A stretch of DNA of 64,000 bases from an uncultured Brevinematales bacterium (lineage in GTDB: Bacteria; Spirochaetota; Brevinematia; Brevinematales; JAOACQ01). Shown one piece after another: positions 18,915 to 55,182 of the stretch (within the stretch, counting starts at the first letter, position 1; each line of letters starts with the position of its first letter). Location: positions 16,862-80,861 of the forward strand of contig CAZHNM010000002.1 of the NCBI GenBank assembly GCA_964533855.1. Reading direction: 5' to 3'. A program made the position numbers and the translations under genes. The notes below the pieces were generated by a model. It was not told where the DNA came from. It searched no databases and saw only the letters and a program-made list of their open reading frames with translations.

Positions 18915-19070
18915 TGCCCCTTCCCTAAAAAATGATAATCTAAAAGCTGAAATAATACAAATTATTGCACAAGATGTCATAAAGTAATGATTGTAGACAC
19001 GGCTAGATTTTGCAAAAAATTTACTCTGATGATAGTATTTAGGTTATTTTTAACTGAAGGCGGGAAGAGA

Positions 19071-20447
19071 ATGGATAATCAAATAATCATCAAAAAAGAC
19101 AGCAAATTAAAATTATATGTTTTATTTTCTTTAATGATAATTTCAATTTCTTTATTTTTATTCATAATAATCAGATATACAGTCAATCTCCCTTTTAAGG
19201 ACGACTGGACTGCGACATTGGCCTTTTTAAACAAGTATACCGGAACAACAAGTATTCCGGCAAAATTTAATCTTATTATTGATTATGAATTCGGGCACAG
19301 GATCGCTTTAATAAGAATTGTGTCGCTGATAGTTTATAAAATACTGGGAATAGTCGATTTCAAGGTAATTAACTTCATTGGAACAGCTGCTATATTTTTA
19401 ATATTATCTTGTTTCTGGGCAAGTAATTTAAAAATTGAAAATTCAAAGGCGTTATACGGCAAGCTGTTGTGGTTTGCTCCAATAGTTTTGTTACTGCTTC
19501 AGCCGATGTACAGTGAAAGCCTGATTCAGGCGATGGTGTCAGTGTCGACATTTTATACGATTGGATTCGGAATATTGTCTCTTTTGATTCTTGATAAAAA
19601 ATCCGACGAAAACTGGCTATGGCTGTTGTTTTCTTTCGCAATAAGTTTATTAAGCTATTTTTCACACAGAGAAGGCCTGAGCTTTTTGATCTCCGGTATT
19701 ATTTTGTTATCTGTTAAAAGGCAATGGCTTAAAGTATCGATATGGGTTATATTGACCGCAACGGCCTTTATTTTTTATCAAAATTATATGACAAACACTA
19801 ATTATGAATATGCCTATAACAGCAATTTATATAACTATAATCTTAATTTTAAAACGTTATCGGCTTCTTTAAAATATTTTCTTATATTTGTCGGGAACAA
19901 TTTCGGAATAGTGCCGCAATCGGCTTATTTTAAAAATCTTCCGGCTGTATTAAAGGCCTTCTTCGATATATTACCCCTTTTATGCGGAATATTAATTTGC
20001 GGATATTTTATATTACTTATTATTAAAAGATATGATCAGAAAAATGCATTTATTTTTTCTCTTATGGCTGCAATATTTATAATTTCAATTGGTGCAGGAC
20101 TTTACAGATACACTATCGATTCCCCGATAGTTTCATACTACCGCTTTCCAACAATATTTTTAATTATAACTATTTATATTTCTCTGATTGAACTTGTAAA
20201 TAATCCTCAAAAAAGGAAATATATCCAGTTTGGGTTCCTGTTATTCGGGATAATATTTTCAATATTCGCCTATTCATTTAAAATTAATACAATAGCCGAA
20301 CACAAAAGAAGCATTGTTGACAGTTTTAAAACATATCAGACAACTGGTAAAGGTTTAATACACATCGGATGGGCATTTTCTGATCCCGAACCGATTTTAA
20401 AAGAATCTATCGCAAAAGGTATATGGAAAATACCCGACAAATATTAG
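19071..20447 (+). CDS. polytopic membrane protein, putative GT-C-type glycosyltransferase (paralog B)
   Basis: Homologous along its length to 1111..2493: NLPFKDDWT vs NIPYNDDYP, FNLIIDYEFGHR vs FNLITGFWNDHR, and KGIWKIPD vs RGIYLIPG at the C-terminus. I chose the start at MDNQ. The ORF track starts at 18987. Confidence 0.6.
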   Translation: MDNQIIIKKDSKLKLYVLFSLMIISISLFLFIIIRYTVNLPFKDDWTATLAFLNKYTGTTSIPAKFNLIIDYEFGHRIALIRIVSLIVYKILGIVDFKVINFIGTAAIFLILSCFWASNLKIENSKALYGKLLWFAPIVLLLLQPMYSESLIQAMVSVSTFYTIGFGILSLLILDKKSDENWLWLLFSFAISLLSYFSHREGLSFLISGIILLSVKRQWLKVSIWVILTATAFIFYQNYMTNTNYEYAYNSNLYNYNLNFKTLSASLKYFLIFVGNNFGIVPQSAYFKNLPAVLKAFFDILPLLCGILICGYFILLIIKRYDQKNAFIFSLMAAIFIISIGAGLYRYTIDSPIVSYYRFPTIFLIITIYISLIELVNNPQKRKYIQFGFLLFGIIFSIFAYSFKINTIAEHKRSIVDSFKTYQTTGKGLIHIGWAFSDPEPILKESIAKGIWKIPDKY

Positions 20448-22644: not shown

Positions 22645-23496
22645 ATGGCGTTAAAGCAGATTCCAAAGGAAAAAAAAGAAGCCTATAACTTAACCGTCAA
22701 GGACTTGAAGGAAAAAGTCGACGTTATCCTGAAAAAAGCCCAGAAGTTCGAGCGAGAAGGCATGAGGGATAAGGAGACGAAATCTTTTTACAAGAGAATA
22801 GCGGCCAGCATAAATTACCTCGAAACCGTCCAGATTTTCAACAAGATGAATGAATACAGCATTCAGATCATGGATATGAAAAACGATCTCTATTTGACAA
22901 ACGCAAGGAAAAACATTTACCAGGCAATAAAAATGCTGGAAACCATCGTGGGGAATGTTATCGATTCCTCGCTTACCGATAATGCCGAAATTATAGAGAA
23001 ACTGTCCCTGTTAAATCCGAAAAGGGTTGTAAACCTGCTCAAGAAAATAGATTACTGCATTGCCAGCGTTCAGTTAGGCGAGGGGGAAACCTCGAAATGG
23101 AAATGGACTTTTGTCGAAATGTACGGCAAGCTCGCGGCGCTGACAAAAAATCTGATAAATTTCAAAGTGTATGCACAGCTTATTTATGATCCCGGCACTC
23201 CTTTCTACCAGGAGATTAACGAATTGTTTCAGCTTGCAAAAAGGCTGATTGAAAATGCGGCTCAGAAATACAGGGGGAAATACGAACTTTCCACCATGGA
23301 TGTCGCCGACATGAACAAGGGTGTCGAGTTTCTAAACCTTCTTCTCCGCATATATATTATTTTAAATGAACAGGCTCAGGCTCAGGAAACGAAAAAAACG
23401 ATCGAAAAATGGAAGGACAAGCTCGAACAGGATATCAGGAAAAAAGATGCAGAGGTCAAAAAACAGCAGAAGGAAGCCATTTCAAGGAAGAAGTGA
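22645..23496 (+). CDS. hypothetical alpha-helical protein
   Basis: 283 aa with a Lys/Glu-rich coiled-coil-like C-terminus. I recognise no motif. Confidence 0.5.
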   Translation: MALKQIPKEKKEAYNLTVKDLKEKVDVILKKAQKFEREGMRDKETKSFYKRIAASINYLETVQIFNKMNEYSIQIMDMKNDLYLTNARKNIYQAIKMLETIVGNVIDSSLTDNAEIIEKLSLLNPKRVVNLLKKIDYCIASVQLGEGETSKWKWTFVEMYGKLAALTKNLINFKVYAQLIYDPGTPFYQEINELFQLAKRLIENAAQKYRGKYELSTMDVADMNKGVEFLNLLLRIYIILNEQAQAQETKKTIEKWKDKLEQDIRKKDAEVKKQQKEAISRKK

Positions 23497-26307: not shown

Positions 26308-26964
26308 CTATCTGTGCAATGCTTTCTTGATTATATCACGGGAATTCTGGAGAATTCCAGGCAGGAATTCAATGCCGACGCCGGTTCCCATCAGTATCTT
26401 TCCTGCAGTCTGGTCTGTTATAAAATCGTTATGCGAATGGGAATCGGTATCGATAACAAGGGGGCTTTTATATAAACATGCAAGGCGGGCTACATGGCCG
26501 TTTGTCAGGCTGTGGCCTCTTCTTGCGGTGATCTCGAGGTAAACTCCTTTAGCGCCTGCCAGCCTGACTTCATCTTCAGAGATAAGGCCGGGATGTGCTA
26601 ATATATCCACGCATGCGTTTATAGCTGCCAGGTTGGTTCCGGAACGGACAGGTTCGGCTATCGTTTCCCCATGAACAACGACAATCGAAACTCCTTTGCT
26701 CCTCGCCAGGTTCGTCAATTCAGCTATTTCCTCCGGCAGTATATGCGTCAGTTCAAGGCCTGAAAGGACTTTGATTTCATCCTGAAGCCTGTTCATTGTA
26801 GAGGCGAATTGGACCCCTTCCCTGCAGAGTTCCTCGATATTGGAACTGTCGGCATGATCTGTCAGAGCGATAGCCTCGTATCCGGCGTTTATCGCTCTTC
26901 TTACGTGTTCTGCGGGTATAAGTTCGCCGTCGCTCCAGAGTGTATGAGTATGCAGGTCAATCAT
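26308..26964 (-). CDS. PHP-domain (histidinol-phosphatase-like) metal-dependent phosphoesterase
   Basis: 218 aa with N-terminal IDLHTHTLWSDGE, plus TDH and DSHSH motifs. Confidence 0.75.
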   Translation of the reverse strand: MIDLHTHTLWSDGELIPAEHVRRAINAGYEAIALTDHADSSNIEELCREGVQFASTMNRLQDEIKVLSGLELTHILPEEIAELTNLARSKGVSIVVVHGETIAEPVRSGTNLAAINACVDILAHPGLISEDEVRLAGAKGVYLEITARRGHSLTNGHVARLACLYKSPLVIDTDSHSHNDFITDQTAGKILMGTGVGIEFLPGILQNSRDIIKKALHR

Positions 26965-28880: not shown

Positions 28881-28925
28881 TAAAATTCCTGCGTGGTTTT
28901 CAGGATGATCAATATAAATATTCCT

Positions 28926-28954
28926 TTGCAATAAAAATAAAATGGTTTTATAAT
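28926..28954 (+). promoter_or_regulatory. candidate sigma-70 promoter of the V-ATPase operon
   Basis: TTGCAA-N17-TATAAT, located 30 nt upstream of the atpK ATG. Confidence 0.55.
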
Positions 28955-28983: not shown

Positions 28984-29454
28984 ATGTTGTTTGTCGGTAT
29001 ATTGGTATTAGCTCTATTGACGGGCGGCACAGCCCTGATCTATTTCAGGTACAAAAAAGAAAATATAAGCGGCAAAATCAAAGGCGCATTTGTGAAGACG
29101 ATCGGGATTACCGGCCTGTTTTCAATCCTGATACTCAGCGTCGGGCTTCTCTCCATGACTGTGACGAAAGTGCATGCGCAGGCTGCTCAGACCTCAGGCC
29201 AGAGCGCTCCTGCCGCTGAAGTAAAATCTCCGGCCCAGAGCCAGCTTGGCCTCGGTCTCGTCGCTGCGGCGCTTGCATTCGGCCTGGGCGCTCTTGGGGC
29301 AGGTATCGCGGTAGGCATGTCAGGAGCTGCTGCAATCGGCGCAATATCGGAGAATCCTAAAATGTTCGGAAGCGCTATAGTCTTTGTAGGTCTTGCCGAA
29401 GGAATCGCCATTTACGGCATCGTTATGGCTATTCTCATTCTCGGGAGAGTATAA
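28984..29454 (+). CDS. atpK: V/A-type ATP synthase proteolipid subunit K (c) with an N-terminal extension
   Basis: 156 aa with a GGAGGA RBS. The C-terminal ~75 aa form a single Gly/Ala-rich c-subunit hairpin (GAGIAVGMSGAAAIGAISENP ... VGLAEGIAIYGIVMAIL, with the carboxylate Glu). The N-terminal ~80 aa are two unrelated hydrophobic helices plus an Ala/Gln/Ser-rich linker. Confidence 0.8.
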   Translation: MLFVGILVLALLTGGTALIYFRYKKENISGKIKGAFVKTIGITGLFSILILSVGLLSMTVTKVHAQAAQTSGQSAPAAEVKSPAQSQLGLGLVAAALAFGLGALGAGIAVGMSGAAAIGAISENPKMFGSAIVFVGLAEGIAIYGIVMAILILGRV

Positions 29455-29500: not shown

Positions 29501-29806
29501 ATGAAATTGATCGTTCTTGGCGATAAGGAAACATCTCTTTTGTTCGGCCTTGCAGGTGTAGAAACCAGGATAATTGAGGATCAGGAATCCGCTATTAATG
29601 AAATCAAGAAAATCAGGAAATTAAAAAACTACGGGTTAATAGTTGTGACTGAAAGAGTGGCGCGGTGGTCCATGGATATCCTGAACACAATGCGCTTCTC
29701 TAAGGAACTTCCCCTGATCATCGATATTCCGGATTCGAAAGGCCATATCGAGGGCGCCAAGAACCTCGCGGAATTCATAAGGGAAGCTGTCGGAATAAGG
29801 ATATAG
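29501..29806 (+). CDS. atpF: V/A-type ATP synthase subunit F
   Basis: 101 aa. MKLIVLGDKETSLLFGLAGVE ... YGLIVVTERVA matches the typical subunit F pattern, and the gene sits in the operon. Confidence 0.75.
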   Translation: MKLIVLGDKETSLLFGLAGVETRIIEDQESAINEIKKIRKLKNYGLIVVTERVARWSMDILNTMRFSKELPLIIDIPDSKGHIEGAKNLAEFIREAVGIRI

Positions 29807-29816
29807 AAGGTGTCCT

Positions 29817-30398
29817 ATGGGTCTTAAGGAAATATTAGACGATATCAGCCGGGAATCGGAAGAGCTGAATAGTTTTACGTTCAGTTCCGCTAAAATAGAA
29901 TCTGAAAATAAAATGCTCCAGGCTGCCGAGGAAATCGAGAGGAAAAGAGAAGAAAAAAAAGATGAACTGGCCGCAGATATCAAGCGCAGGCGAATCAAAC
30001 TGACTGCAAAAGCCGAACTCGACGCATACAGGGAGAGGCAGAAGCTCGAGGTGAATCTCATTGACAATGTTCTTGATGAATCGTTCAAGGAATTGATTAA
30101 AGAGATAAATAAAAACAGGGAAAACTACCTTTCTTTTCTGAAAAAGTTAGTCAGTGCATCTGTAGCTTTGATAGGCACTTTGCCCGTGGAAGTTTCGCTA
30201 TCGAAGGATGACGCGGCGCTTTTCAATGAAATAGCTAAAGATTTTAAGCAGGGCGATCTCATCCTTGCCGGCAGCGCGAAGATGTCCGGGGGAGTAATTT
30301 GCTCTTCCGGCGGAAGTTATGTCGATAATTCGATAGAAAATATTTTCGAGAAACAGAGGCCTGCATTCCTGAAAATGATTTCCGAAGAATTGGCCTGA
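29817..30398 (+). CDS. atpE: V/A-type ATP synthase subunit E (peripheral stalk)
   Basis: 193 aa with a long charged N-terminal helix and a globular C-terminal domain (GGVICSSGGSYVDNSIE). The gene sits in the operon. Confidence 0.7.
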   Translation: MGLKEILDDISRESEELNSFTFSSAKIESENKMLQAAEEIERKREEKKDELAADIKRRRIKLTAKAELDAYRERQKLEVNLIDNVLDESFKELIKEINKNRENYLSFLKKLVSASVALIGTLPVEVSLSKDDAALFNEIAKDFKQGDLILAGSAKMSGGVICSSGGSYVDNSIENIFEKQRPAFLKMISEELA

Positions 30399-30412
30399 TT
30401 AAGGACGTTTGA

Positions 30413-31090
30413 ATGAAAGTTAAAAACCCTGAAATAGACGTCGGGGGTAAAAAGTTTCTGAGGATACCTGTTAAAACCCATGTGATTACAAGGGATGACA
30501 GGATTGTAGACGTTGTAAAAAAATATGCGCTTCCTGAACTTAAAGAAAATGACATTGTTTTTATTAGTGAAAAAGCCGTGGCAATAACCCAGGGAAGGGC
30601 TTTTCCCGTGAAAGACATTAAACCGGGCTGGCTTGCCGTGTTTTTATCAGGGCATGTTACGAAAACGCCCAATGGAATAGGGCTTGGAATACCGGAAACG
30701 ATGGAAATGGCTTTAAAAGAATGCGGTGTAATAAGGATTCTAATAGCTGCCGCTATCGGTTTTGCAGGCAAGCTTCTCGGAAGAAAGGGTGATTTCTACA
30801 GGGTAGCCGGTTATAAAGCGTCTTCGATTGACGGTCCGACGCCCAATACGCTTCCGCCCTATAATACATATGTAGTGCTTGGCCCTGCCAGGCCGGATTC
30901 TGTTGCAAGCGAAATTGCAGGTGCGATAAAAGAACGTACTGTTATAGCCGATCTTAACGACCTCGGCGGTAAAATCCTCGGAAGATCCGACAGGTCGCTC
31001 GACAAATACTGGCTTTTATCGGTCCTGAGGGATAACCCGCTTGGGCAGAGTTCCGAGCAGACCCCTATAGGAATTATCAGAGAAATTTAG
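30413..31090 (+). CDS. CofE-like (F420-0:gamma-glutamyl ligase fold) protein embedded in the V-ATPase operon
   Basis: 225 aa. By eye it aligns to archaeal CofE, which I am quoting from memory. NDIVFISEKAVAITQGRAFPVKDIKP aligns with GDVLVVCSTVISKAEGRIRRLEEFNP. ASSIDGP aligns with NAGIDAS, VIADLND with IITDTNG, and TPIGIIRE with IPAVVVRG. Confidence 0.5.
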   Translation: MKVKNPEIDVGGKKFLRIPVKTHVITRDDRIVDVVKKYALPELKENDIVFISEKAVAITQGRAFPVKDIKPGWLAVFLSGHVTKTPNGIGLGIPETMEMALKECGVIRILIAAAIGFAGKLLGRKGDFYRVAGYKASSIDGPTPNTLPPYNTYVVLGPARPDSVASEIAGAIKERTVIADLNDLGGKILGRSDRSLDKYWLLSVLRDNPLGQSSEQTPIGIIREI

Positions 31091-31117
31091 TCCCGAAGAA
31101 TTGTTTAGAGGAATATT

Positions 31118-32896
31118 ATGGATAGTAAAAAAGCGGGTGTAATTTTAAAAATCAACGGTCCCATTATTCATGCAAAGCTAACCGATATGCTGCAGATGAT
31201 GGAGCTTGTCGAAGTATCGGATTATCATCTTATAGCGGAAGTGCTCAGCATACGCGGTGATATAGCGATTATCCAGGTTTATGAGGATACCAGCGATATC
31301 AAGCCGGGAGATCCGGTATACAGCACAGGTCTTCCTCTGTCAGTAGACCTAGGGCCGGGGATTATCGGAAATATTTTCGACGGCATACAGAGACCGCTTG
31401 AGGAAATTGAAAAAAGATCCGGGATTTATATCGGCAGGGGTATAAATGTCCCTTCCCTCGACAGGGAGAAAAAGTGGCATTTCCAGCCCAGGGTTGCAGA
31501 AGGCGCAAGGCTGGCCGGGGGAGCAATAATCGGAACCGTCCAGGAAACGAGCGTTATCGAACACAGGATACTTATCAGGCCTGACGTTAAACCGGGTGTT
31601 CTTGTCAAAATGGTTCCCGAGGGGGAATATTCTCTTAACGATGTGATAGCCGTTTTAAAGACTGATGAAGATGAAGAAGTTGAAATAAAGCTTTACCACA
31701 GGTGGCCGGTAAAAGTTCCGAGGCCCGTAGTAGACAGGTCGAAACCCGTTATACCTCTCATAACGGGGCAGAGGATCGTCGACATGTTTTTCCCTATAAC
31801 AAAGGGGGGTACGGCAGGAATACCGGGAGGTTTCGGTACCGGGAAGACCATAACCCAGCACCAGCTTGCTAAATGGGCCGACGCCCAGGTTATTGTCTAT
31901 ATCGGATGCGGTGAAAGGGGAAACGAGATGACGGAAGTGCTCGAAGACTTCCCGAAGCTTATAGACCCGAGAACCGGCAAACCCTTGATGGAAAGGACTA
32001 TTCTTATTGCTAATACATCCAATATGCCTGTAACAGCCAGGGAAGCATCCATTTATACAGGTATTACACTGGGCGAGTATTACAGGGATATGGGTTACGA
32101 TGTCGCTATCATGGCTGATTCGACTTCCCGCTGGGCGGAAGCCCTCAGGGAACTTTCCGGAAGACTCGAAGAAATGCCGGCCGAAGAAGGATTTCCCGCA
32201 TACCTCGGCTCGAGGCTTGCCGCGTTTTACGAGAGGGCGGGATATGTCAAAACCAAATCCGGATCTTTCGGCTCAATCAGCGTTATAGGCGCGGTTTCTC
32301 CTCCGGGAGGTGATTTCTCGGAGCCTGTGACGCAGAATACAAAGAGATTTGTGAGATGTTTCTGGGAGCTCGATAAAAACCTCGCGAGCAGCCGCCACTA
32401 TCCGGCTATAAACTGGATGAGAAGCTACAGCCAGTATGTCGATGACGTCCGCCCATGGTGGGATGAGCATGTCGCCACAGATTACCGTGAAGTCAGGATT
32501 AAAACTTTCGAAATCCTTCAAAAAGAGGACCAGCTGCAGAGGATAGTTAAATTGATAGGCCCGGATGCGCTGCCCGACAGCGAAAGGCTTTACCTTGAGG
32601 TCGCAAGGCTTATCAAACTCGGCTTCCTCCAGCAGGGAGCTTTCGATGAAATAGATACTTATTCAACACCCGAAAAACAGTTGAAAATATTGAGGATCTT
32701 TCTTAAATTCCTTGAAAGGGCTGAGGAGATCATCAAGCTCGGGGCGCCGATCCTGACTATAAGGGAAATGAAGTGCATACCGGATATGATCCGTATCAAG
32801 CTCACTGTTCCTAACAACAAGCTAAGCGATATCGACGATATAGAAAAGATAATGCATAAGGAATTCGATGTATTGAAGGAAGAGTATAAAGACTAA
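31118..32896 (+). CDS. atpA: V/A-type ATP synthase catalytic subunit A
   Basis: 592 aa with the Walker A GGFGTGKT. The sequence is typical of subunit A, including the non-homologous insert region and [14 protein letters not shown]. Confidence 0.95.
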
Positions 32897-32925
32897 TAGC
32901 CTCATTAAGTTCATTGGAGTTTAAA

Positions 32926-34320
32926 ATGGCCGTGGAAATGAGAAAAGAATATGTTGGAATTGCCGGCTTAAAAGGGCCTCTGGCAATAGTTGAAGGCATC
33001 AAGGGCATCGGTTATGACGAAATGGTCGAAATGAAGCTTCCGGACGGCTCCGTGAGAAACGGCAAAGTCCTGGAGTCATCGGACGATGCCGTTTTAATAC
33101 AGATATTCGAGGGTTCCAGCGGTATAAATCCTCGGAATGTAAGGGTGTCCTTCAAGGGCAAGCCTTTTGAAATAGGTCTGTCGGATAAAATACTCGGAAG
33201 GGTATTTAACGGCATGGGCAAGCAGATAGACGGGCTTGCAGAAATTATTCCCGATGTGATTAAAAATGCGAACGGGGAACCTCTCAACCCTGTTGTCAGA
33301 GCATACCCCCGCGAATATATAGAATCAGGTATAACGACAATAGATCTTATGAATACCCTCGTCCGGGGTCAAAAACTGCCTATATTTTCTGCGGCAGGTC
33401 TTCCCCATAATGAGTTAGCCGCCCAGATAGCCGCTCAGGCAAAACTTCCCGGTGAACAGTCCGGAAATTTTGCGGTTATTTTCGCCGCAATGGGTATCAA
33501 ACATGATGACGCTTTTTTCTTCAGAAGCAATTTTGAAGAAACGGGAGCCTTGAAAAACGTTGCAATGTTTTTAAATTTAGCAGACGATCCGCCTATAGAA
33601 AGGATCATTACCCCCAGAGTTGCCCTGACGGCAGCCGAATACCTGGCTTACGAAAAGGACATGCACGTTCTCGTCATCCTGACAGATATGACCAGTTATT
33701 GCGAAGCTCTCAGGGAGATCGCGAATGCAAGGGGTGAAGTTCCAGCCAGGAAAGGTTTTCCTGGATATATGTACAGCGACCTGTCAACTATTTATGAAAG
33801 GGCCGGAAGGGTCCAGAATAAAAAGGGCAGTATTACGCAGGTGCCGATCCTCACGATGCCTAACGACGATATAACGCACCCGGTGCCCGATCTGACCGGC
33901 TATATTACAGAGGGGCAGATAGTTTTAGGAAGAGATCTTAACGGAAAGGGAATATATCCTCCCGTCGATATTCTTCCTTCTCTTTCAAGGCTTATGAAGG
34001 ATAGTATCGGCAAAGGTTATACCAGGGATGATCATCCCCACCTTTTCATGCAGCTTTACGCAAGCTACGCCAGGGTTAAAGAGGTAAGGTCCATAGCGTC
34101 GATCGTAGGTGAAGAGGAACTCGGCGCAATTGAGCAGAGCTACCTCAAATTCGGAAACAGGTTCGAGCATGAATTTATAGGGCAGGGATTCAACGAAGAC
34201 AGATCTCTTGAACAAAGCCTGGCCCTCGGCTGGAAAATGCTGTCTCTTCTGCCTAAGACAGAACTGACAGGCCTGCGCGAGGAAGAAATCAAGATGTATT
34301 ATACAGAGGAAGAAAAGTAG
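32926..34320 (+). CDS. atpB: V/A-type ATP synthase subunit B
   Basis: About 464 aa with typical B-subunit sequence (ILTDMTSYCEALREI, GSITQVPILTMPNDDITHP). The ATG at 32926 follows TGGAG. The ORF track starts at TTG 32914. Confidence 0.95.
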   Translation: MAVEMRKEYVGIAGLKGPLAIVEGIKGIGYDEMVEMKLPDGSVRNGKVLESSDDAVLIQIFEGSSGINPRNVRVSFKGKPFEIGLSDKILGRVFNGMGKQIDGLAEIIPDVIKNANGEPLNPVVRAYPREYIESGITTIDLMNTLVRGQKLPIFSAAGLPHNELAAQIAAQAKLPGEQSGNFAVIFAAMGIKHDDAFFFRSNFEETGALKNVAMFLNLADDPPIERIITPRVALTAAEYLAYEKDMHVLVILTDMTSYCEALREIANARGEVPARKGFPGYMYSDLSTIYERAGRVQNKKGSITQVPILTMPNDDITHPVPDLTGYITEGQIVLGRDLNGKGIYPPVDILPSLSRLMKDSIGKGYTRDDHPHLFMQLYASYARVKEVRSIASIVGEEELGAIEQSYLKFGNRFEHEFIGQGFNEDRSLEQSLALGWKMLSLLPKTELTGLREEEIKMYYTEEEK

Positions 34321-34329
34321 GATAATTAT

Positions 34330-34965
34330 ATGAATATTTCCGAAGTAGCACCTACTAAAACAAACCTCCTGGATTTTAAATCGCAGCTGGGGTTTTCGAT
34401 AGACGGCCATGCACTGCTTGAAGAAAAGCGGGAAATTCTTGTCATGCAGCTTGTCGATATTGTCTCGAAAATCAAGGAAGTGAGGGAAAGCATCAATAAT
34501 CTTCTTGCCCGAAGTTATGAACTGCTTCAGATTGTTTCCCTTGAAATCGGAGAACTCGAATTAAGAAACATTTCCGATACGCAGAAAGAATTGCCGGAAA
34601 TTGAAATACATGAAAAAAGAGTAATGGGTGTAAGCATACCCTCGATAAAATATAAAGAAGAGATAAAAACTTCAGCAAGACCCGATATTTCCTTCTCTTC
34701 TTCCACGATAAATTTCGATATGCTGTCGAAGCAGGTCAAGGAAATTGTCAAGCTTATCATTGTTGTAGCGCAGGTTGAAGATTCGGCATGGAAACTTGCA
34801 TACGAGATAAAAAAAACTCAGAGGCGCGTCAACGCCCTCGAGAATATCTTTATACCTGAATTCAGGGAAATTATTAAATTTATCCAGGATACGCTCGAGG
34901 AAAGGGAAAGAGAAACATTTTTCCAGCTCAAGAGGATAAAAAACAATCAGGACGCTTCCGTTTAA
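34330..34965 (+). CDS. atpD: V/A-type ATP synthase subunit D (central stalk)
   Basis: 211 aa. The N-terminal PTKTNLLDFKSQLGFSIDGHALLEEKREIL pattern is typical of subunit D. Confidence 0.85.
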   Translation: MNISEVAPTKTNLLDFKSQLGFSIDGHALLEEKREILVMQLVDIVSKIKEVRESINNLLARSYELLQIVSLEIGELELRNISDTQKELPEIEIHEKRVMGVSIPSIKYKEEIKTSARPDISFSSSTINFDMLSKQVKEIVKLIIVVAQVEDSAWKLAYEIKKTQRRVNALENIFIPEFREIIKFIQDTLEERERETFFQLKRIKNNQDASV

Positions 34966-34983: not shown

Positions 34984-35436
34984 ATGAGCAGAATTTATTT
35001 TCCTTTAACTGGCTCAGCAGAGAACAGGAAGGCTATCGCGAAAGTCATATCTTTTGCAGGGTCCTTTAATATGAAATTAACCGCAATTTCTGTCGTCAAC
35101 AATGAATTACTCTTTAAAATGGAAAGATATAAGATTTTCATTAAGGAAGAAACCACGATTATCAAAAATGGAATGACTAAAGACGCCGAGAATTATCTCA
35201 ACCATGTAAAAAAGCTCGGCAGCGAGGGAGGAGTCGAAGTAACTCCTGTTCTTCTCGAAGGCGACCCCTATTCCTGTATTATGGATTACATAAAGCACGA
35301 TAAGGAAGATAATAAGATCGTCTGCGTGGCAAAAAAATGCGGGGGAGAATTTTTAAAAGACATTTTTTCGGCAGTTGAAAGAAAAATACTGCTGAATACG
35401 ACTTTCGACACTTTTGTTATCGGGGAGAATGTATGA
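34984..35436 (+). CDS. universal stress protein (USP)-like protein embedded in the V-ATPase operon
   Basis: 150 aa with a GGGGAGG RBS. It has a USP-like layout: IYFPL start, GDPYSCIMDYIK, and a C-terminal FSAVERKILLNTTFDTFVIG resembling the USP GSV..VL....PVLVV tail. The ATP-binding G-x2-G-x9-GS motif looks degenerate. Confidence 0.5.
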   Translation: MSRIYFPLTGSAENRKAIAKVISFAGSFNMKLTAISVVNNELLFKMERYKIFIKEETTIIKNGMTKDAENYLNHVKKLGSEGGVEVTPVLLEGDPYSCIMDYIKHDKEDNKIVCVAKKCGGEFLKDIFSAVERKILLNTTFDTFVIGENV

Positions 35437-35741
35437 AGGAACTAATATCCGCCGTGCTCGACGCCGAGGAAAATCTGCAGAAGAAGGCAAAATCGGTTGA
35501 TGAAAAAATTCAGGACTTGAATATTCAGGCGGAAGGAAAAATAAGCCGGATGAACAATGAACTTGAAGATGAGATTATAAAGGAAAAGAATGAAAAAACC
35601 AATAGCCTCGATATTGAAATAAGGGTTTACAGCGATAAACTGCATAATGAAATAGAGCGCGATATGAAAGCAAAAACAGAAAAGCTGAATGCCAAGAAGC
35701 CTGCAATTTTCTCCAGGATTATTAATTCGATAATCGGTTAA
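35433..35741 (+). CDS. small coiled-coil protein, candidate V/A-ATPase peripheral-stalk subunit G/H
   Basis: 102 aa that looks almost entirely charged helix. It overlaps the upstream gene as ATGA. Its size and composition match the G (archaeal H) subunit, which is otherwise missing from the operon. Confidence 0.4.
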   Translation: MKELISAVLDAEENLQKKAKSVDEKIQDLNIQAEGKISRMNNELEDEIIKEKNEKTNSLDIEIRVYSDKLHNEIERDMKAKTEKLNAKKPAIFSRIINSIIG

Positions 35742-35758
35742 GACAAAAGAGGATAATT

Positions 35759-36763
35759 ATGTTTGGTGAAGAATACGCCTCGGTTTATCCGAAGGTTAAA
35801 AGCTGGGCCGGAACATTAGTGCTGACTAAGGATAAATGCTCCGAGATGCTTTCGATGAATTTAGCCGATTATAAGCAGTATCTAAAATCGCTGTCGAAAA
35901 AGATAAGTTTGAATACCGAAGATAATGTTCAGCTCGAAGGCCAGCTCAAGCAGGAAGGCTATTATTTTATCGAGAGTATAAGCCGTTATCTCATGGGTTA
36001 CACCAAAGATTTTGTAAACTACCTGGGTAAAATGCTCGAGATTGAGAACCTGAAATTAGTAACAAGGGCTCTGCTGAATAAGAGGCCCGTTAATTTCCTG
36101 TATAAACTAAAAAAAATGAGCCGTATCCAGATGGAATTTGTAAAGGATATCAAAACCCTCGAAGAATTCCATGAACTGCTCAGCGGCACTGAATATTACA
36201 GACTGGCAACGGACGCAATACCGAGGATAGAGAGCGAAAACACAACATTTTATTTTGAAATGAACCTCGATAATTACTATGCAAATAACATCAAAAAGAA
36301 GGTTTCAAAATTAGGGCCTGATGAGAAGCAGCAGGTTAAAAATATATTTTATTATTACATGAATGTAAACCGGCTGTTATGGATTTACAGAGCCAAATTC
36401 AATTATTCGATGTCTAATGAGGAAATAATAGCAATAGTCCCGAATATACAGGTGATCTTCAACAAGGCGCAGTACCAGGCCCTTCTAGACTCGGAAACCA
36501 AAGAGGATTATATCGAGAATTTAAAAAAATCCGGTTTCCTCGAGATTAGAAACCCGGATCATTTCGATCTTGAAAGGGAGATGCATTATCAGCTTCTGAT
36601 CAAGGGGAAGTCCTGTCTTTCGGGATACCCGTTCAGCCTCGGTGTTTTTCTCGGATTTTTCGTTTTGAATATAATACATGTGAAAAATCTTATTACTGTT
36701 TTAGAAGCAAAAAAACTTGATATTGATCCCGCTAGGGTTATGGATCTGCTGATTTATTATTAA
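35759..36763 (+). CDS. atpC: V/A-type ATP synthase subunit C (eukaryotic d / AC39 family)
   Basis: 334 aa with an AAGAGGA RBS. The EIENLKLVTRALLNKRP pattern recurs in the C/d family, and the gene sits in the operon. Confidence 0.6.
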   Translation: MFGEEYASVYPKVKSWAGTLVLTKDKCSEMLSMNLADYKQYLKSLSKKISLNTEDNVQLEGQLKQEGYYFIESISRYLMGYTKDFVNYLGKMLEIENLKLVTRALLNKRPVNFLYKLKKMSRIQMEFVKDIKTLEEFHELLSGTEYYRLATDAIPRIESENTTFYFEMNLDNYYANNIKKKVSKLGPDEKQQVKNIFYYYMNVNRLLWIYRAKFNYSMSNEEIIAIVPNIQVIFNKAQYQALLDSETKEDYIENLKKSGFLEIRNPDHFDLEREMHYQLLIKGKSCLSGYPFSLGVFLGFFVLNIIHVKNLITVLEAKKLDIDPARVMDLLIYY

Positions 36764-36773
36764 GGATTAACCG

Positions 36774-38729
36774 ATGTTTATAGCGCAGAGAATGAAGAAA
36801 ATCGACATGCTGATCGTGAAGAAGCTGGCCGATGAAGTATCCAGGGAAATTGTCAAATTCGGAGATTTCCAGTCTATTGAAATAAACGGTGAAAAAGCGA
36901 AAAGCCTGATGCTTTCAAAGAATGCCACCGATGCAGGCGTTGCGCGTTTTACAGATCTCGATAAAAGAATCAATTATCTCATGACAACCTTCGAAAGCAT
37001 AATGGAAAACATCGGATTGTGGAAAAACGAGGAGATCACGGAATCCGGGATGACTGATGTCGAAACCCTTGAAATAAATGTAAAGTCTATAGAAACAGAA
37101 TTGAATTTTCATAACAGCGACCTTGAAAGGCTCCGGAACGACCAGAAAGACGCTAAAATCAGGATCAAGAAAATCAATTACTTTTCAGAGCAGGATATAG
37201 ACTGGGCAAGGGCCGAAAATCTAAGGTTTTTCGATATCGGATTCGGAAGCATCCCCATGACCGGCTACGAAGGATTTGAAAGCGCAATGCAGACTCTTCC
37301 TTCAATTGTAGAAAAAATCGACACGGTAGGCGACGTAGTTATCGTGTTTTATATGGCTCCCGCTTCGATAAAAGACAAGGTCTTACAGATCCTGAAAAGC
37401 GTTTACTTCAAGGACTACGGGATTCCCAGGTCGACTGTCGAAGCCGGCAAGTCGGCACTTGTGCATTACGCGTTCGAATTATCGGCGGCTTATGATGAGG
37501 AATTATGGCAGGAAAAACAGTTTAAAAAAAGTGTTCTTGACTACAGGACCCTGCTGAAGACTCTTAAAAACAGCGCCCAGTATTATATTGCGATGGAGCG
37601 CCTGAAGGGTGAAATGGTTTATTCAGATAAAGTCTGCGTTTTTTCAGGATGGGTGCCTTCGAAGATTGTTCATAAATTAGAAAAGAAAATGGAGCAGGTT
37701 TCCGGGAATAGATGCGTATTTTTAGAGCAGAGCGCATCTAAAGTCATGGATGAAGAGGGCATGATGCCTCCTACAAAGTTCAATAATCCGTTCTTTATAA
37801 AACCTTTTGAAATGCTGACATCGACTTTCGGTACTCCGAATTACAGGGAAATCGATCCCACCCCCATAATGGCGGTGACTTTTATCCTCATGTATGGCGC
37901 CATGTTCGGGGACGCCGGCCAGGGCCTGGTCATCGTGCTTCTCGGCATTCTCGTGTTTTTGGTAAAGAAGCTCAAATCGTTCAGGGCGTTCGGGGCGATA
38001 TTGATCTATGCCGGGCTTTCCGCGTCGTTTTTCGGCGTTATGTACGGGGCTATATTCGGTTTTGAAAATGTTTTGAAACCTGTCTGGATAAATCCCATGG
38101 AACATATAAACGATATTCTAATGATTTCAGTGGGTTACGGCTCTTTGGTGATTTTATGCGCCATGCTGCTTAACATTATAAACAGCATAATGGAAAGAAA
38201 TTACGGCCGGCTTCTCTTTTCGACAAACGGTGCCGCAGGACTAGGATTTTACGGTTCTCTGATATTTGTGGCTTTGTGCGCTATTAGAGGAATTCATTAC
38301 CCGAATTATGTGTTTATAATAACAGGCGCCTGCGCCATTCTCATCGCACTGGAAAAGAACCTTGAAAGATGGTTTTTCGGCCATCATGGCAAGGGGGCGG
38401 ATGATGAAAAACCTAGCATCGGATTGGGTTTAATTGAAATGTATGAATCCATGATGGGTTTCCTCAGCAACACCATTTCTTATATCAGGGTAGGCGCCTT
38501 TGCGCTGAACCATATCGCCCTGATGAGCGTGGGTTTTATTTTTGCTTATTCCTCAAAAGAACCGGCCGTTCAATGGATCGTGCTTCTCCTATGGAATCTC
38601 TTTATTATTGGTTTCGAAGGATTCATAGTCTTCATACAGGTTATAAGGCTCGAATACTACGAATTCTTCACGCGCTTCTTCCGCGCGGACGGCAAGGCCT
38701 TCGAAGGAATAGGGATCTACAAACCGTAG
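36774..38729 (+). CDS. atpI: V/A-type ATP synthase subunit I (a)
   Basis: 651 aa with a soluble N-terminal half and a polytopic C-terminal half. It has SYIRVGAFALNH (essential Arg region) and RLEYYEFFTRFF. Confidence 0.85.
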   Translation: MFIAQRMKKIDMLIVKKLADEVSREIVKFGDFQSIEINGEKAKSLMLSKNATDAGVARFTDLDKRINYLMTTFESIMENIGLWKNEEITESGMTDVETLEINVKSIETELNFHNSDLERLRNDQKDAKIRIKKINYFSEQDIDWARAENLRFFDIGFGSIPMTGYEGFESAMQTLPSIVEKIDTVGDVVIVFYMAPASIKDKVLQILKSVYFKDYGIPRSTVEAGKSALVHYAFELSAAYDEELWQEKQFKKSVLDYRTLLKTLKNSAQYYIAMERLKGEMVYSDKVCVFSGWVPSKIVHKLEKKMEQVSGNRCVFLEQSASKVMDEEGMMPPTKFNNPFFIKPFEMLTSTFGTPNYREIDPTPIMAVTFILMYGAMFGDAGQGLVIVLLGILVFLVKKLKSFRAFGAILIYAGLSASFFGVMYGAIFGFENVLKPVWINPMEHINDILMISVGYGSLVILCAMLLNIINSIMERNYGRLLFSTNGAAGLGFYGSLIFVALCAIRGIHYPNYVFIITGACAILIALEKNLERWFFGHHGKGADDEKPSIGLGLIEMYESMMGFLSNTISYIRVGAFALNHIALMSVGFIFAYSSKEPAVQWIVLLLWNLFIIGFEGFIVFIQVIRLEYYEFFTRFFRADGKAFEGIGIYKP

Positions 38730-38882: not shown

Positions 38883-40214
38883 ATGCCGTATTTTGATAAA
38901 TATTACCAGAGAATGCCCGATGGAACAATAAAGCAGATAAATCCGTATAACGGTACGGAAGTATGGTGCGTTGAAGAAAGGAAAAGAGGGCCGATCCTGA
39001 ATGCCGTTCCCAGGAACCCTGTCCCTCTGAGGGTTTCAATACCTGAAAATTACTGTGATTTCTGCTGTTCAAAGTACGAGTTATGCACGCCTGAAAAGGC
39101 AAGGGTCGTCAGGGAAGCTGATGGAAAATGGAGAAAATACTACCGGGTAGAGTCTGAAAAACCTGGAGGATGTTCTGCGGATTTCAGGCTTGTCGGCAAT
39201 CTCTTTGAAATTGTGACATATGATTACTGGGCCAAGAATTATCATTATAAAATGAATAAAACGAACAGGGACTGGAAAGAAAAATATCTGAGCAGCCCTA
39301 AGGGCTATAATCATGCGATGAAGATGCTCGAAATAAAATTAAACAGGATGGGAGCCGATTTTTCTTCGATGCCTGAGGATGAAAAGATTGAAAAATTGAA
39401 TCCGTTCTTCGGCGGCTCTCATGACCTTATAATCGGGAAGCGCCATTACCGTGAAGGAGCGAAATTTACCCATGAGCTGTGCTCATCGGGAGAGATGACA
39501 GTCGAAGAACATTTCCAGTATATTCTTTTTACGGCTGAAAGCGTAAAAGATCTTTTCGATCAAAATCATTTTATCAGGTATATAATCGTGTTCCAGAACT
39601 GGCTCAGACCCGCCGGGGCTTCATTCGACCATCTTCACAAGCAGCTCGTAGGACTCGACGAATGGGGTGTCCAGATGGAAAGAGAAATGGCCGAGCTGAA
39701 CAGGAATCAGAACCTCTATAATGAATTTTCAATTAATTTCGGGATTTATCACTCAATGATACTTGCAGAAAATGATTATGCTATTGCCGTAACGGAGATA
39801 GGCCACCGTTTTCCGACAGTGGTGGTTTATTCAAAAAGCGAAACCAGCAGGCCTTTCGAGCAGACAAGGGAAGAGATAAAGGGAATGAGCGATCTTGTGC
39901 ATGCGGTCCATTGCGTTACGACAAGCCAGACAACATGCAATGAGGAGTGGTATTATTCTCCCTTCGACTCTGTTTACAGCATGCCATGGCGCATATGTAT
40001 CAAACTGCGAATACATACTCCGGCAGGATTCGAAGGAAACACCGAGATTTATATAAATCCTGTGCATCCCAGGAAGCTTGCCTCCGAACTGGCAAAACTT
40101 CTCGAAATAAAAAGGGATGAAGGTCTTATCTGCCCGGATATAAGAATCGGCGGAGAAGTGAAAAGGGAGCCGAATGTTTTGAAATACTACAAAAATAAAT
40201 TGAAGAGACTGTAG
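38883..40214 (+). CDS. GalT/HIT-superfamily nucleotidyltransferase-like protein (DUF4921-like)
   Basis: 443 aa with the FDHLHKQL (HxHxQ) active-site motif of galactose-1-phosphate uridylyltransferase-type enzymes. An N-terminal CDFCC motif could bind zinc. Confidence 0.55.
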   Translation: MPYFDKYYQRMPDGTIKQINPYNGTEVWCVEERKRGPILNAVPRNPVPLRVSIPENYCDFCCSKYELCTPEKARVVREADGKWRKYYRVESEKPGGCSADFRLVGNLFEIVTYDYWAKNYHYKMNKTNRDWKEKYLSSPKGYNHAMKMLEIKLNRMGADFSSMPEDEKIEKLNPFFGGSHDLIIGKRHYREGAKFTHELCSSGEMTVEEHFQYILFTAESVKDLFDQNHFIRYIIVFQNWLRPAGASFDHLHKQLVGLDEWGVQMEREMAELNRNQNLYNEFSINFGIYHSMILAENDYAIAVTEIGHRFPTVVVYSKSETSRPFEQTREEIKGMSDLVHAVHCVTTSQTTCNEEWYYSPFDSVYSMPWRICIKLRIHTPAGFEGNTEIYINPVHPRKLASELAKLLEIKRDEGLICPDIRIGGEVKREPNVLKYYKNKLKRL

Positions 40215-47197: not shown

Positions 47198-47238
47198 CGT
47201 AAACGATTAGCATAATTAAAATAAATTTGGAGGTATAT

Positions 47239-48657
47239 ATGGACGCTAAGGGTGTATTAGACCTGATAAAGAAAGAAGGCATAGTTCAGGTCGATTTACG
47301 TTTTATGGATTTTCCGGGAATGTGGCAGCACTGTACTTATCCTGTTTCAGAATTTAAGGATGACAGCCCTTTTACAGAAGGTTTGGGATTCGACGGTTCT
47401 TCAATCCGCGGCTGGCAGGGCATTAACGAATCAGATATGCTCCTGATGCCTGATCCGAGCACAGCAGTTATCGATCCTTTTACCCAGTATCCCACTCTTA
47501 TCATGATTGCGGATATCAAGGATCCTATCACACACCAGGAATACTCAAGAGACCCCAGGCATATCGCTAAAAAATCAGTTGATTATTTAAAAAGCACAGG
47601 CATCGGCGATATGATCTACTTCGGGCCTGAACTCGAGTTCTTCATATTCGATGATATAAGATACGGCCAGAACACCAAAGAAGGATTTTATCACATAGAT
47701 TCAGACGAAGGCGTCTGGAATACCGGAAGGGAAGAAGAATGCGGCAACAAGGGTTATAAGATCAGGCATAAAGAGGGATATTTCCCGGTACCCCCTTCAG
47801 ATTCTCTTATGGACCTCCGCAGTGAAATGGTCCAGATGCTTGAAAAAGTCGGCATCAGGGTCGAAGCTCACCATCATGAAGTTGCAACCGCGGGCCAGAC
47901 TGAAATCGACATGCGTTTCGACGAACTTGTCAGGATGGCCGACAAGGTCCTGATGTATAAATATGTAACAAAGCAAGTCGCTGTCAATAATTGCAAGACA
48001 GTTACCTTCATGCCCAAACCACTCTTCGGCGATAACGGAAGCGGCATGCATTGCCACCAGAGTATCTGGAAGAACGGCAAGAACCTCTTCGCCGGCAACA
48101 AATATGCAGGCTTCTCCCAGGAAGGCCTCTGGTATATCGGCGGTATTTTAAAGCATGCAAATGCTCTCGTCGCTATTACATGCCCGACTATGAATTCCTA
48201 CAAGCGGCTTGTGCCGGGCTTCGAAGCCCCTATTAAGCTTGCTTATTCGGCAAGGAACAGAAGCGCTGCTGTAAGAATACCTATGTATTCATCAAAAGAG
48301 AGCGCAAAGCGTCTTGAATTCAGGACACCCGATCCGAGCTGCAATCCTTACTTAGCTTTTGCCGCAATGACAATGGCAGGACTGGACGGCATCCAGAATA
48401 AAATTGACCCGGGCGAACCTATGGATAAAAATATTTACGACCTCCCGCCCGAAGAACAGGCTAAAGTCGGAAATATCCCTGGTTCTCTTGAAGAAGCACT
48501 GAACAACCTCAAGAACGACCATGAATTCCTCCTCAAGGGAGACGTCTTCACAAAAGATGTTATCGAAACATGGATCGACTACAAGATGGTGAATGAAGTA
48601 AGGGCTATCCAGCAGAGGCCGCATCCTTATGAATTCTTCCTGTACTATGACATTTAA
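47239..48657 (+). CDS. glnA: glutamine synthetase, type I
   Basis: About 472 aa with typical GSI sequence. NIYDLPPEE contains the adenylylation-site Tyr context. The ATG at 47239 follows GGAGG. Confidence 0.95.
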
Positions 48658-54600: not shown

Positions 54601-55182
54601 ACGCAGCCTCATATCCACCCTGTATAAAAAGCCTTCGCTTGTCGTGGAGCTTATAAAATCAAGAAGGCCTGTCAGTAATGCCCCTGTATAATCGTCGGAA
54701 TCCCCTACAAGAAAAACCAGGTCGATATCTGAACTGATATTAAGCTCGTTCCCGCCTAATTTCCCCATTCCGATAATAATAAGGTTTTCCACGAGGGATT
54801 TATAACGCAGCAGATCATTACCGCTTCCGGCTAAAAGGCTTTTGACCGAGTAATCTATGCAGAAATCAGCGAGCCTTGAAAGACTTTCGATGGTATCCTT
54901 GACGGTGTAAATTTTAAGAAAATCCTTGAGGGCGATAAGAGCAAGCTCCCTGTTTTTTATTTCCCTTGACCGGAGCTTGAGGCTTTCCGGCGCGGCATCC
55001 TCAGGCGGGAAAGGGTATTTCAAAGAATACGGATCCTCTATTACTCCTTCCAGGGTCCCATTGTTAAAACCCTCGATAATATTATACATTTCCAGTCTCA
55101 GCGCTTCATTCCTGGAAAGGAGCATTGATATGTAGGGACTGGAAAGCTCAAGGCTTCTTATGGATTCTTCAGGATTGATCAT
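51694..55182 (-). CDS. glnE: bifunctional glutamine synthetase adenylyltransferase/adenylyl-removing enzyme with a central ACT-ACT insertion
   Basis: 1162 aa with two GlnE nucleotidyltransferase cores (GMGKLGGNELNISSDIDLVF with MRLRPEGGNGPL, and GLGKLGGRELGYASDIEIMF with LNLRPYGKS). Residues ~435-700 between them contain two ACT-like beta-alpha-beta-beta-alpha-beta segments. Confidence 0.85.
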   Translation of the reverse strand: MINPEESIRSLELSSPYISMLLSRNEALRLEMYNIIEGFNNGTLEGVIEDPYSLKYPFPPEDAAPESLKLRSREIKNRELALIALKDFLKIYTVKDTIESLSRLADFCIDYSVKSLLAGSGNDLLRYKSLVENLIIIGMGKLGGNELNISSDIDLVFLVGDSDDYTGALLTGLLDFISSTTSEGFLYRVDMRLRPEGGNGPLFMRAADALDYYRDRARKWELQAMIKKRLVWGSAVLFDEFSTRLDDIIYSHHQPHAILYDIKRTKDLIETNIRSRNLLFEIKQSPGGIRDIEFIIQFLQLIHGIRYPEFKNPNSLTALSLLSTFHIITPGEFSILHSSYITLRKIENIIQLKNNTPEHSLPADDKDIETLFRPWRIDGFDSGTDNYSMEFKARLQNIMKEVREIFTYLFDETIHYLELKDNLLAGHPDIDRELLSDHFLRMDSEYFLSFSEDNIYSHLMMISKLDIRNPALIKAEKTGPGRWELTIVAFDYYYEFSKIAGLVSAYYLKIISGESFTYGGDSGAFYRRQEKRIYPYSPPAETGGLIYRRKIVCFLTVEEFENHHEPDWDNFRKELSFILSLLENNRAREAEEFLNNKILGLISLIQSGETPSIAPVEIGVDNVSSSRYTILNISSGDSFAFLYTFTNVLALYNYYIFKIEIDTSGERVFDRLFILTRDGKKILETREIENLKIAAALIKQYSTLLQNAVNPDKALLYFDELLMRVLESGDKKELPILGQKDVQEKLAAVFGIGDYFWEDLIRLQYTDMLPVLSDPVLKQHFTREQLTELFLSELSGQTGKVREGNFSILLNDWKDREMFRIDIRQILKMTGMAEFSLELTDLAESVIDIAMKKIDKEMQKTGGMKKVPAWAVFGLGKLGGRELGYASDIEIMFIYDDDPEESTRGNNDMVTYYEKYMQDLLKIIRSKREGIFEIDLNLRPYGKSSRIPVSKSVFLEYFREGKAYYFEKQAMVKLRPICGGNAPESLIKDIISGRDLFVYSGIKPDINALYKLREKQIGSYIKKPGLTNIKYSKGCLVDIEYLVQTLQIACGKDIPAVRCESTLDSIEALFKTGVIDENSWGILNNGYLFFRNLINILRMVKGNAKDLSVYPQDSAEYDYLVKRSYFVGIIDEKSPVLLKNTIDKHRQDVSSVFENEIRKLQL

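Follow-up and report, generated by a model that had tools for sequence, protein, structure and literature searches.

A CofE-superfamily protein encoded between the subunit E and A genes of a Brevinematales V/A-ATPase operon

We analyzed gene X, an open reading frame (ORF) at 30413..31090 (+ strand) of a 64-kb window (the whole stretch of DNA studied here, from contig CAZHNM010000002.1 of an uncultured Brevinematales bacterium), where it lies between the genes for subunits E and A of a V/A-ATPase operon. Its product is a 225-aa soluble protein of an uncharacterised branch within the CofE/FbiB-N (PF01996) superfamily, as determined from the ORF, Pfam, AlphaFold2 (AF2) modelling with Foldseek, and profile-profile alignment. 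We regard X as a new variant in a known superfamily and its operon placement as a lineage-specific curiosity. Our composite reading, to which as a whole we would give an even chance, is that X is an uncharacterised CofE-superfamily enzyme, possibly a nucleoside triphosphate (NTP)-dependent amide ligase, that rides in the operon as a passenger. The parts of this reading differ in strength: we are very confident that X belongs to the CofE/FbiB-N superfamily and practically certain that it is not CofE itself; it is likely to be a passenger rather than a dedicated ATPase factor; and by analogy with its relatives it may have ligase chemistry, for which the balance falls slightly short of even.

Fold and residue conservation of X

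The Pfam model F420_ligase (PF01996) matched X at 47.2 bits (gathering cut-off 25, E-value 2.5e-12) and was present in 120 of the 120 X homologues listed. An AF2 model of X built on 32 homologues had a mean pLDDT of 82.3 and a pTM of 0.81, and its only significant Foldseek matches in the Protein Data Bank (PDB) were to A. fulgidus CofE (2phn, 2g9i and 7uld; E-values 2e-8 to 1e-6, TM ~0.59), the next-best match having an E-value of 0.4. Identity of X to the solved CofE structure was 14%; PDB sequence searches with the single X protein or with a profile of close homologues (A1) did not reach CofE, and a profile of divergent X-family members (50%-identity representatives) found 2phn by sequence at an E-value of 1.9e-5. 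When the X family was aligned by hhalign to a CofE/FbiB-type set of 53 full-length proteins recovered by metagenome scan, the alignment was collinear over 186 columns, with 99.4% probability and an E-value of 2e-20. The resemblance of X to CofE is far beyond chance. Profile and structure searches thus found the CofE fold that had been proposed from alignment by eye in a sequence-only reading of this DNA, and all four of the segment pairings given there, including ASSIDGP with NAGIDAS and VIADLNDLGG with IITDTNGR, recurred in the profile-profile alignment.

We mapped conservation in 105 X-family sequences (representatives clustered at 50% identity) onto the 53 CofE sequences, numbering CofE residues by a metagenomic CofE (L081). 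The three invariant Asp residues of CofE (Asp33, Asp108 and Asp149) are retained in X as D47, D140 and D180. Two motifs are common to both proteins, an N-terminal strand-helix motif (xxSEKxVAxxQGR in X, xxSTVxSKAEGR in CofE) and a C-terminal G-x(5)-[TI]-P...R motif. Within the SKAEGR portion of the former, Lys44 is replaced by Ile and Glu46 by Gln60 of X; elsewhere Ser110 and Asn111 are not kept, Leu takes the place of Arg153 and Ile or Val that of Arg156, and the Thr/Ser that follows Asp149 in 100% of CofE sequences becomes Ala, Val, Ile or Leu. The last of these changes had been picked out in the sequence-only reading, as Thr to Leu in a DT pair, and is informative, holding family-wide. A second change noted there, Glu to Gln in GEGG, was also reproduced, but the position itself may be K, Q or E in CofE/FbiB and is therefore uninformative. 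The roles of individual CofE residues in binding metal or GTP we take, as an assumption, to be those given by Nocek et al. 2007.

The residues conserved in X include D47, Q60, R62, D140, D180, N182, D183, N208-P209, G211-Q212 and T217-P218, some of which fall in invariant motifs specific to X (G126-x-F-Y, N182-D183, N208-P-x-G-Q212 and T217-P218). The AF2 model and the alignment also place an X-specific helical insert at residues ~80-135.

In the 2024 ligand complexes of CofE, F420 is held by the hairpin, the G153-C155 stretch and Arg234 of the dimer partner (PMC10861534). CofE residues 158-196, which include eight invariant Gly, Asp or Glu and are taken to be the long domain-swapped beta-hairpin, are shrunk to a short loop in X, with ~30 residues of the hairpin region gone; the last ~28 residues of CofE, including Arg234 by alignment, have no counterpart; and where CofE has GRC, facing the isoalloxazine (PMC10861534), X has D183-L184-G185. 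X scored only 21.6 bits against the CofE equivalogs, for which the cut-offs are 180.65 (TIGR01916) and 274 (NF009809), and a Pfam scan of 50 other window ORFs (10 operon genes and 40 others) found no cofC, cofD, cofG, cofH, fbiC or folate-cluster genes. These results uphold the earlier doubt that X is an F420 ligase, together with the observation that the window holds no other F420 gene. They stand against the label that NCBI and JGI give its orthologues, coenzyme F420-0:L-glutamate ligase, which would make X a genuine CofE and with which the PF01996 match agrees; low equivalog scores, lost F420-binding elements and the lack of F420 genes in the window effectively refute that identity, leaving it almost no probability. 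To our knowledge, the Clostridia and spirochaetes that are the main hosts of X include no known F420 producers.

It is also highly unlikely that X works like FolC2, as an alternative folylpolyglutamate synthase or dihydrofolate synthase. A CofE-family FolC2 (CT611) does complement an E. coli folC mutant (PMC1971073), and X weakly matches the FolC2-type model TIGR04132; X, however, reaches only 17.9 bits where the cut-off is 350, and no folB, folK, folP or folA cluster adjoins it, whether in the window or at the 80 loci examined below.

Linkage of X to V/A-ATPase genes

Gene X starts with an ATG at 30413, the earliest start past an in-frame stop, and ends with a stop codon at 31088-31090. Because atpE stops at 30398 and atpA begins at 31118, X is flanked by gaps of 14 nt (30399..30412, +) and 27 nt (31091..31117, +, from the coordinates), the former containing by direct reading an AAGGA ribosome-binding site at 30401-30405, 7 nt 5' of the ATG. 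The ORF is thus real, and its neighbors are V/A-ATPase subunits by Pfam, as the sequence-only reading had it; of the two gap lengths given there, 27 nt was right and 15 nt was off by one. A consensus scan found no promoter- or terminator-like sites in the atpE-X or X-atpA spacer, and the sole good promoter-like matches of the operon were upstream of its subunit K gene, where a sigma-70-like promoter (28925..28954, +; a consensus match only, TTGCAA/TTTGCA, 17-18 nt spacer, TATAAT, 10/12) lies just 5' of the gene. With gaps so small and such sites lacking within them, it is very probable, as judged from sequence, that X and the ATPase genes share a transcript, in keeping with the co-expression proposed earlier.

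We then take up association with the ATPase across genomes, which we judged from loci rather than from genome-wide co-occurrence, a point that counts against our composite reading and is weighed with others below. Scanning one genome per GTDB species gave at least 586 loci for X, of which the best 80 were examined with 6-kb flanks. The full E-X-A order was found in eight of these, all from Brevinematales/Spirochaetota (L001-L003, L011, L016, L019, L021 and L024), while another (L015) breaks off after K-F-E-X. At the remaining ~70 loci, from Clostridia, Oscillospiraceae, Acidaminobacteraceae, Erysipelotrichales and Calditrichales, no V-ATPase gene was found within 6 kb. Among these loci, homologues are therefore unlinked to the ATPase outside one order and linked to it inside Brevinematales. 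We found no literature linking a CofE-like gene with a V-ATPase operon or CofE with asparagine synthase, nor any on this subfamily.

Outside Brevinematales the tightest conserved pairing was with a pyridoxal phosphate (PLP) enzyme of PF06838 ('Met_gamma_lyase'/YnbB-like), encoded directly 3' of X with overlaps or gaps of a few nt at 13 loci of the Oscillospiraceae type (L020, L027-L029, L034, L040, L042, L048, L059, L061, L062, L069 and L070). In 10 loci murB is next to X, in the setting uvrC...SBP-X-murB-PHP-rapZ-yvcK. No partner of X was consistent over the 80 loci; the neighbors were variously murB/PHP/rapZ/yvcK, the YnbB-like PLP enzyme, recR, an ACT protein, HIT, ComEC and SBP. PHP-domain phosphoesterases recur near X: the window encodes one at 26308-26964 (-), two genes upstream of the operon, L001 has one four genes upstream, and Lutispora-type Clostridia (L004-L014) have one or two copies beside or around X-murB, at positions -2 and +2. 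This recurrent proximity could be coincidence.

In a neighbor-joining (NJ) tree of X, the Brevinematales sequences form a grade, inside which a murB-linked group from Clostridia and Calditrichales is nested; this nesting indicates that X is a long resident of Brevinematales and has moved horizontally. An informative operon came from the most distant subunit E homologue, which led to a 7-kb contig (L171) carrying an operon of the same unusual type, K-F-E-A-B-D-Usp-small ORF, but with an 11-nt overlap that joins atpE directly to atpA, so that no gene intervenes. Its identity to the window (73% for A, 76% for B and 59% for D) is as close as that of X-bearing operons, and an NJ tree of A+B nests L171 among them. 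Most simply read, the L171 lineage has either lost X or moved it elsewhere; the nesting of an X-less operon among X-bearing ones implies that X is not required in cis for this ATPase.

Family, fusions and proposed function

Relatives of X number 4,832 clusters at 90% identity and 1,229 at 50% identity, and are found mostly in Firmicutes. With other Brevinematales/Spirochaetota proteins the window protein shares 84-85% identity, and with those of Clostridia such as Lutispora still 70-74%. Across phyla, identity in the family is 60-74%, and the A1 alignment of close homologues has a mean column identity of 72%. Among the 105 representatives, 30 positions are at least 85% conserved. Such family-wide purifying selection points to a defined active or ligand-binding site in X. 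Since the identity to unlinked orthologues is as high as 70-74%, we presume the same molecular function for linked and unlinked X. We conclude that the X family is a large, uncharacterised sister family of CofE, for which the name 'coenzyme F420-0:L-glutamate ligase' is an over-annotation.

Fusions were surveyed in the 150 best divergent representatives. The most frequent, in 31 of the 150, joins X to an N-terminal AsnB-like module (GATase_7 + Asn_synthase); examples are P0152, P0164, P0166, P0172, P0187, P0213 and P0257, and those AsnB fusions with a named source come from Actinobacteria and candidate phyla radiation (CPR) bacteria (Nomurabacteria). Several AsnB::X fusions have an intact MCG (Cys2) nucleophile and SGGxDS PP-loop, and others are degenerate. 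An N-terminal transmembrane helix with a ~170-aa unknown domain was fused to X in seven cases (P0218, P0231 and P0254 among them), and Amidase_3 (N-acetylmuramoyl-L-alanine amidase) in five (P0226, P0240, P0243, P0248 and P0268), with no obvious signal peptide in the three Amidase_3::X sequences inspected (P0226, P0240 and P0243). Fusions to GNAT, M20 peptidase, adenylate kinase, PlsY, CDP-alcohol phosphatidyltransferase, HD and TPR were one-offs, and a nitroreductase domain was found in none of 20 Pfam-scanned fusion proteins. Neither in the window nor at any of the 80 loci does X have a homologue of AsnB, Amidase_3, GNAT or M20 nearby, and the contexts of the AsnB, Amidase_3 and transmembrane fusions and of stand-alone divergent members were uninformative. 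One divergent member (P0255; L170 6001-6882) sits among ~25 short overlapping co-directional ORFs, a run with a prophage- or phage-like look that also holds a DNA methylase and an HTH_17/MerR-type protein. We rejected a phage or defence role for X, which had no PHROG or PADLOC matches and did not appear in viral contigs (IMG/VR).

By analogy with CofE, for which an acyl-phosphate mechanism is described (PMC8498797, PMC10861534), X would use its conserved acidic site, probably with a divalent metal and a nucleotide, to activate a substrate carboxylate, which would then form an amide bond with an amine or amino acid. The substrate would be neither F420 nor demonstrably folate. The recurrent AsnB fusions suggest that the substrate or product bears an Asp/Glu-like carboxylate that is later amidated, in a two-step logic of 'ligate, then amidate', or else that an Asp/Glu-type substrate may be shared. 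In Brevinematales, X would have become lodged between atpE and atpA and be co-transcribed with the V/A-ATPase as a passenger like the Usp-like gene of the same operon, acting neither as a subunit nor as an obligatory assembly factor.

The principal alternative to ligation, which we consider somewhat unlikely, is that X is a CofE scaffold turned hydrolase, phosphotransferase, nucleotidyl-transferase or small-molecule-binding regulator. Such a change of chemistry would fit the replacement of K44, E46, S110, N111, T/S150, R153, R156, D180, D195 and E196 (L081 numbering), the deletion of the ~30 hairpin-region residues and the rise of new invariant motifs (NPxGQ...TP, GxFY and ND), as well as the presence in the operon of the Usp-like protein, whose family is annotated as binding nucleotides. 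Yet the three core Asp are retained, the characterised relatives CofE, FbiB-N and FolC2 are all carboxylate-amine ligases (PMC8498797, PMC1971073), and fusion to carboxylate-amidating enzymes of the AsnB type fits amide chemistry. A more specific proposal within the ligase reading, a part for X in peptidoglycan modification, we think unlikely: it is hinted at by the Amidase_3 fusions, the adjacency of murB, a PBP near a CPR fusion and the analogy of AsnB to enzymes amidating mDAP or D-Asp, but at no locus was the link decisive.

The sequence-only reading had suggested that X could be an accessory, assembly or modifying factor of the V-ATPase, an idea that the ~70 unlinked loci among the 80 and the X-less operon L171 do not support. 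In its general form, X would be a dedicated Brevinematales V/A-ATPase factor, whether an assembly chaperone, a regulatory subunit or a subunit modifier (adding glutamate, for example). The short spacers around X, free of promoter- and terminator-like sites, speak for this, as do the E-X-A order in every Brevinematales/Spirochaetota locus with enough flank, over a divergence of A to 66%, and the unusually fast evolution of the adjacent subunit E, for which eight homologues were detectable. We nonetheless judge it improbable, given that clostridial orthologues with no ATPase gene inside 6 kb share 70-74% identity with X, that divergent members are AsnB fusions in Actinobacteria and CPR bacteria, that L171, of the same operon type, lacks X while nested among X-bearing operons, and that X resembles no V-ATPase subunit family. 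Very unlikely is the bolder version in which Brevinematales X acts on the V/A-ATPase itself, with the Usp-like protein tuning assembly or coupling. X would there attach glutamate or some other amino acid to a carboxylate of a subunit, candidate targets being the acidic C-termini of A ('...EEYKD') and B ('...TEEEK') or the stalk subunit E, or it would make a small-molecule effector; if this were true, X would be the first case of a post-translationally modifying enzyme whose gene lies within the operon of a prokaryotic rotary ATPase.

Against the composite reading of X as a passenger and possible amide ligase we set the following, besides the locus-based judgment of association mentioned above. 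The active site has been extensively rebuilt, with change of both Lys and Glu of SKAEGR and loss of the D-[T/S] hydroxyl, Arg153, Arg156, Ser110 and Asn111, so that nucleotide-dependent ligase chemistry is not assured. No neighborhood or fusion context was consistent enough to name a pathway or substrate. The absence of X from L171 was scored on a contig of only 7 kb, and X may lie elsewhere in that genome. Finally, E-X-A has been kept even though identity falls to 66-67% for A and to 25-30% for E, a retention that could reflect selection for co-expression.

The chief worth of X is that it sets right a widespread mis-annotation and draws attention to a highly conserved orphan enzyme family with a strong AsnB fusion signal. 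Thousands of proteins of Clostridia, spirochaetes, Actinobacteria and CPR bacteria are named F420-0:L-glutamate ligase while lacking the F420-binding apparatus, and this can lead to F420 pathways being wrongly called in metagenomes from the gut and the environment. Finding the substrate of X could bring to light an amide-forming step that is widespread, possibly within the metabolism of the cell envelope or of peptides. The family could further inform the question of how CofE arose, which has been called 'unclear' in review (PMC8498797). For the V-ATPase the lesson is mostly cautionary: here a tight place in the operon is confined to one lineage and can be done without in at least one related operon. 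Carrying two genes that encode no subunit (X and Usp-like), the Brevinematales operon is still an odd case that can be tested.

The operon, its surroundings and known counterparts

The V/A-ATPase operon comprises 11 co-directional, tightly packed genes, in the order (by Pfam) K, F, E, X, A, B, D, Usp-like, small coiled-coil protein, C/d and I. The canonical subunits each have their own gene in the operon, and X shows no similarity to any V-ATPase subunit family, PF01996 being its only Pfam match. The first gene (28984..29454, +) encodes the proteolipid subunit K/c (PF00137, E-value 1.3e-16), a 156-aa protein whose ATP-synt_C match is confined to residues 94-152 (one hairpin), the N-terminal ~90 aa consisting of additional hydrophobic segments and an Ala/Gln/Ser-rich linker. 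It is followed by subunit F (29501..29806, +; PF01990) and by subunit E (29817..30398, +; PF01991, 32.5 bits), which is lineage-specific and fast-evolving: just eight homologues were found at E<=1e-3 among 5.8 billion proteins, and its identity is 25-37% between operons whose A subunits are at 66-76%. Subunit E also has a sub-threshold FliH match. Downstream of X come the catalytic subunit A (31118..32896, +; PF00006, PF16886, PF22919 and PF02874), subunit B (32914..34320, +; Pfam) and subunit D (34330..34965, +; PF01813).

The second non-subunit gene of the operon (34984..35436, +) encodes the Usp-like protein, which matches PF00582 at 18.6 bits, under the cut-off of 24; its counterpart in L171 does carry PF00582, and the gene is kept at the same position in those Brevinematales operons with a flank long enough. 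It overlaps a gene (35433..35741, +) for a 102-aa protein with no Pfam match, which from its place between D and C/d may be a G/H-type subunit of the peripheral stalk. The Usp-like gene and a ~100-aa ORF are both present between atpD and C/d in L001-L003, L011, L016, L019, L021 and L024, and in the X-less operon L171 too. Subunits C/d (AC39; 35759..36763, +; PF01992) and I/a (36774..38729, +; PF01496) complete the operon, directly 3' of which, on the same strand, lies a gene for a DUF4921 protein (38883-40214, 545 bits). In the Brevinematales metagenome-assembled genome of L016, a second ATPase B-like coding region (731-1849) lies ~4 kb upstream of the X-bearing operon and may belong to another rotary or flagellar ATPase.

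Elsewhere in the window, glutamine synthetase (47227-48657) and a 1,162-aa GlnE/GlnD-like adenylyl/uridylyl-transferase (51694-55182) are encoded 9-17 kb downstream of the operon and, together with a GATase_2 protein (55525-56619), form a nitrogen-metabolism neighborhood with no evident link to X. A MetH-like methionine synthase of 814 aa (7012-9456) has S-methyl_trans, Pterin_bind and B12-binding domains, no C-terminal reactivation domain being detected. Five ORFs encoding 168-586 aa (1111-2493, 2506-4266, 18987-20447, 22645-23496 and 63052-63558) had no Pfam match at E<=1e-4.

Among known systems, CofE, the GTP- and Mn2+-dependent gamma-glutamyl ligase of F420-0 (A. fulgidus AF2256; 2PHN, 2G9I and 7ULD; TIGR01916), is like X in overall fold and in the three invariant Asp; it differs in that X has no F420 gene context in the window, has a helical insert of its own, and is without the hairpin region and tail. 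The domain at the N terminus of FbiB, the mycobacterial F420 gamma-glutamyl ligase with a nitroreductase-like domain, is like X a PF01996 domain, occurring in a fusion protein (PMC8498797), whereas fusions of the X family are to AsnB-like, Amidase_3 and other partners, and the window X stands alone. FolC2 (CT611) of Chlamydia is a CofE homologue acting on a non-F420 carboxylate in a host without other cof genes (PMC1971073, PMC4161248). It is thus a precedent for recruitment of a CofE homologue to another carboxylate substrate, although FolC2 sits in a strictly conserved folate operon and X does not. For the operon placement, the nearest likeness is ntpJ, the K+ transporter component gene in the ntp operon of Enterococcus hirae: like X, it is a V-ATPase-operon gene that is no part of the enzyme, and the Usp-like gene is a second such case here. 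However, ntpJ has an ion-transport rationale, and no such link is evident for the CofE-fold X.

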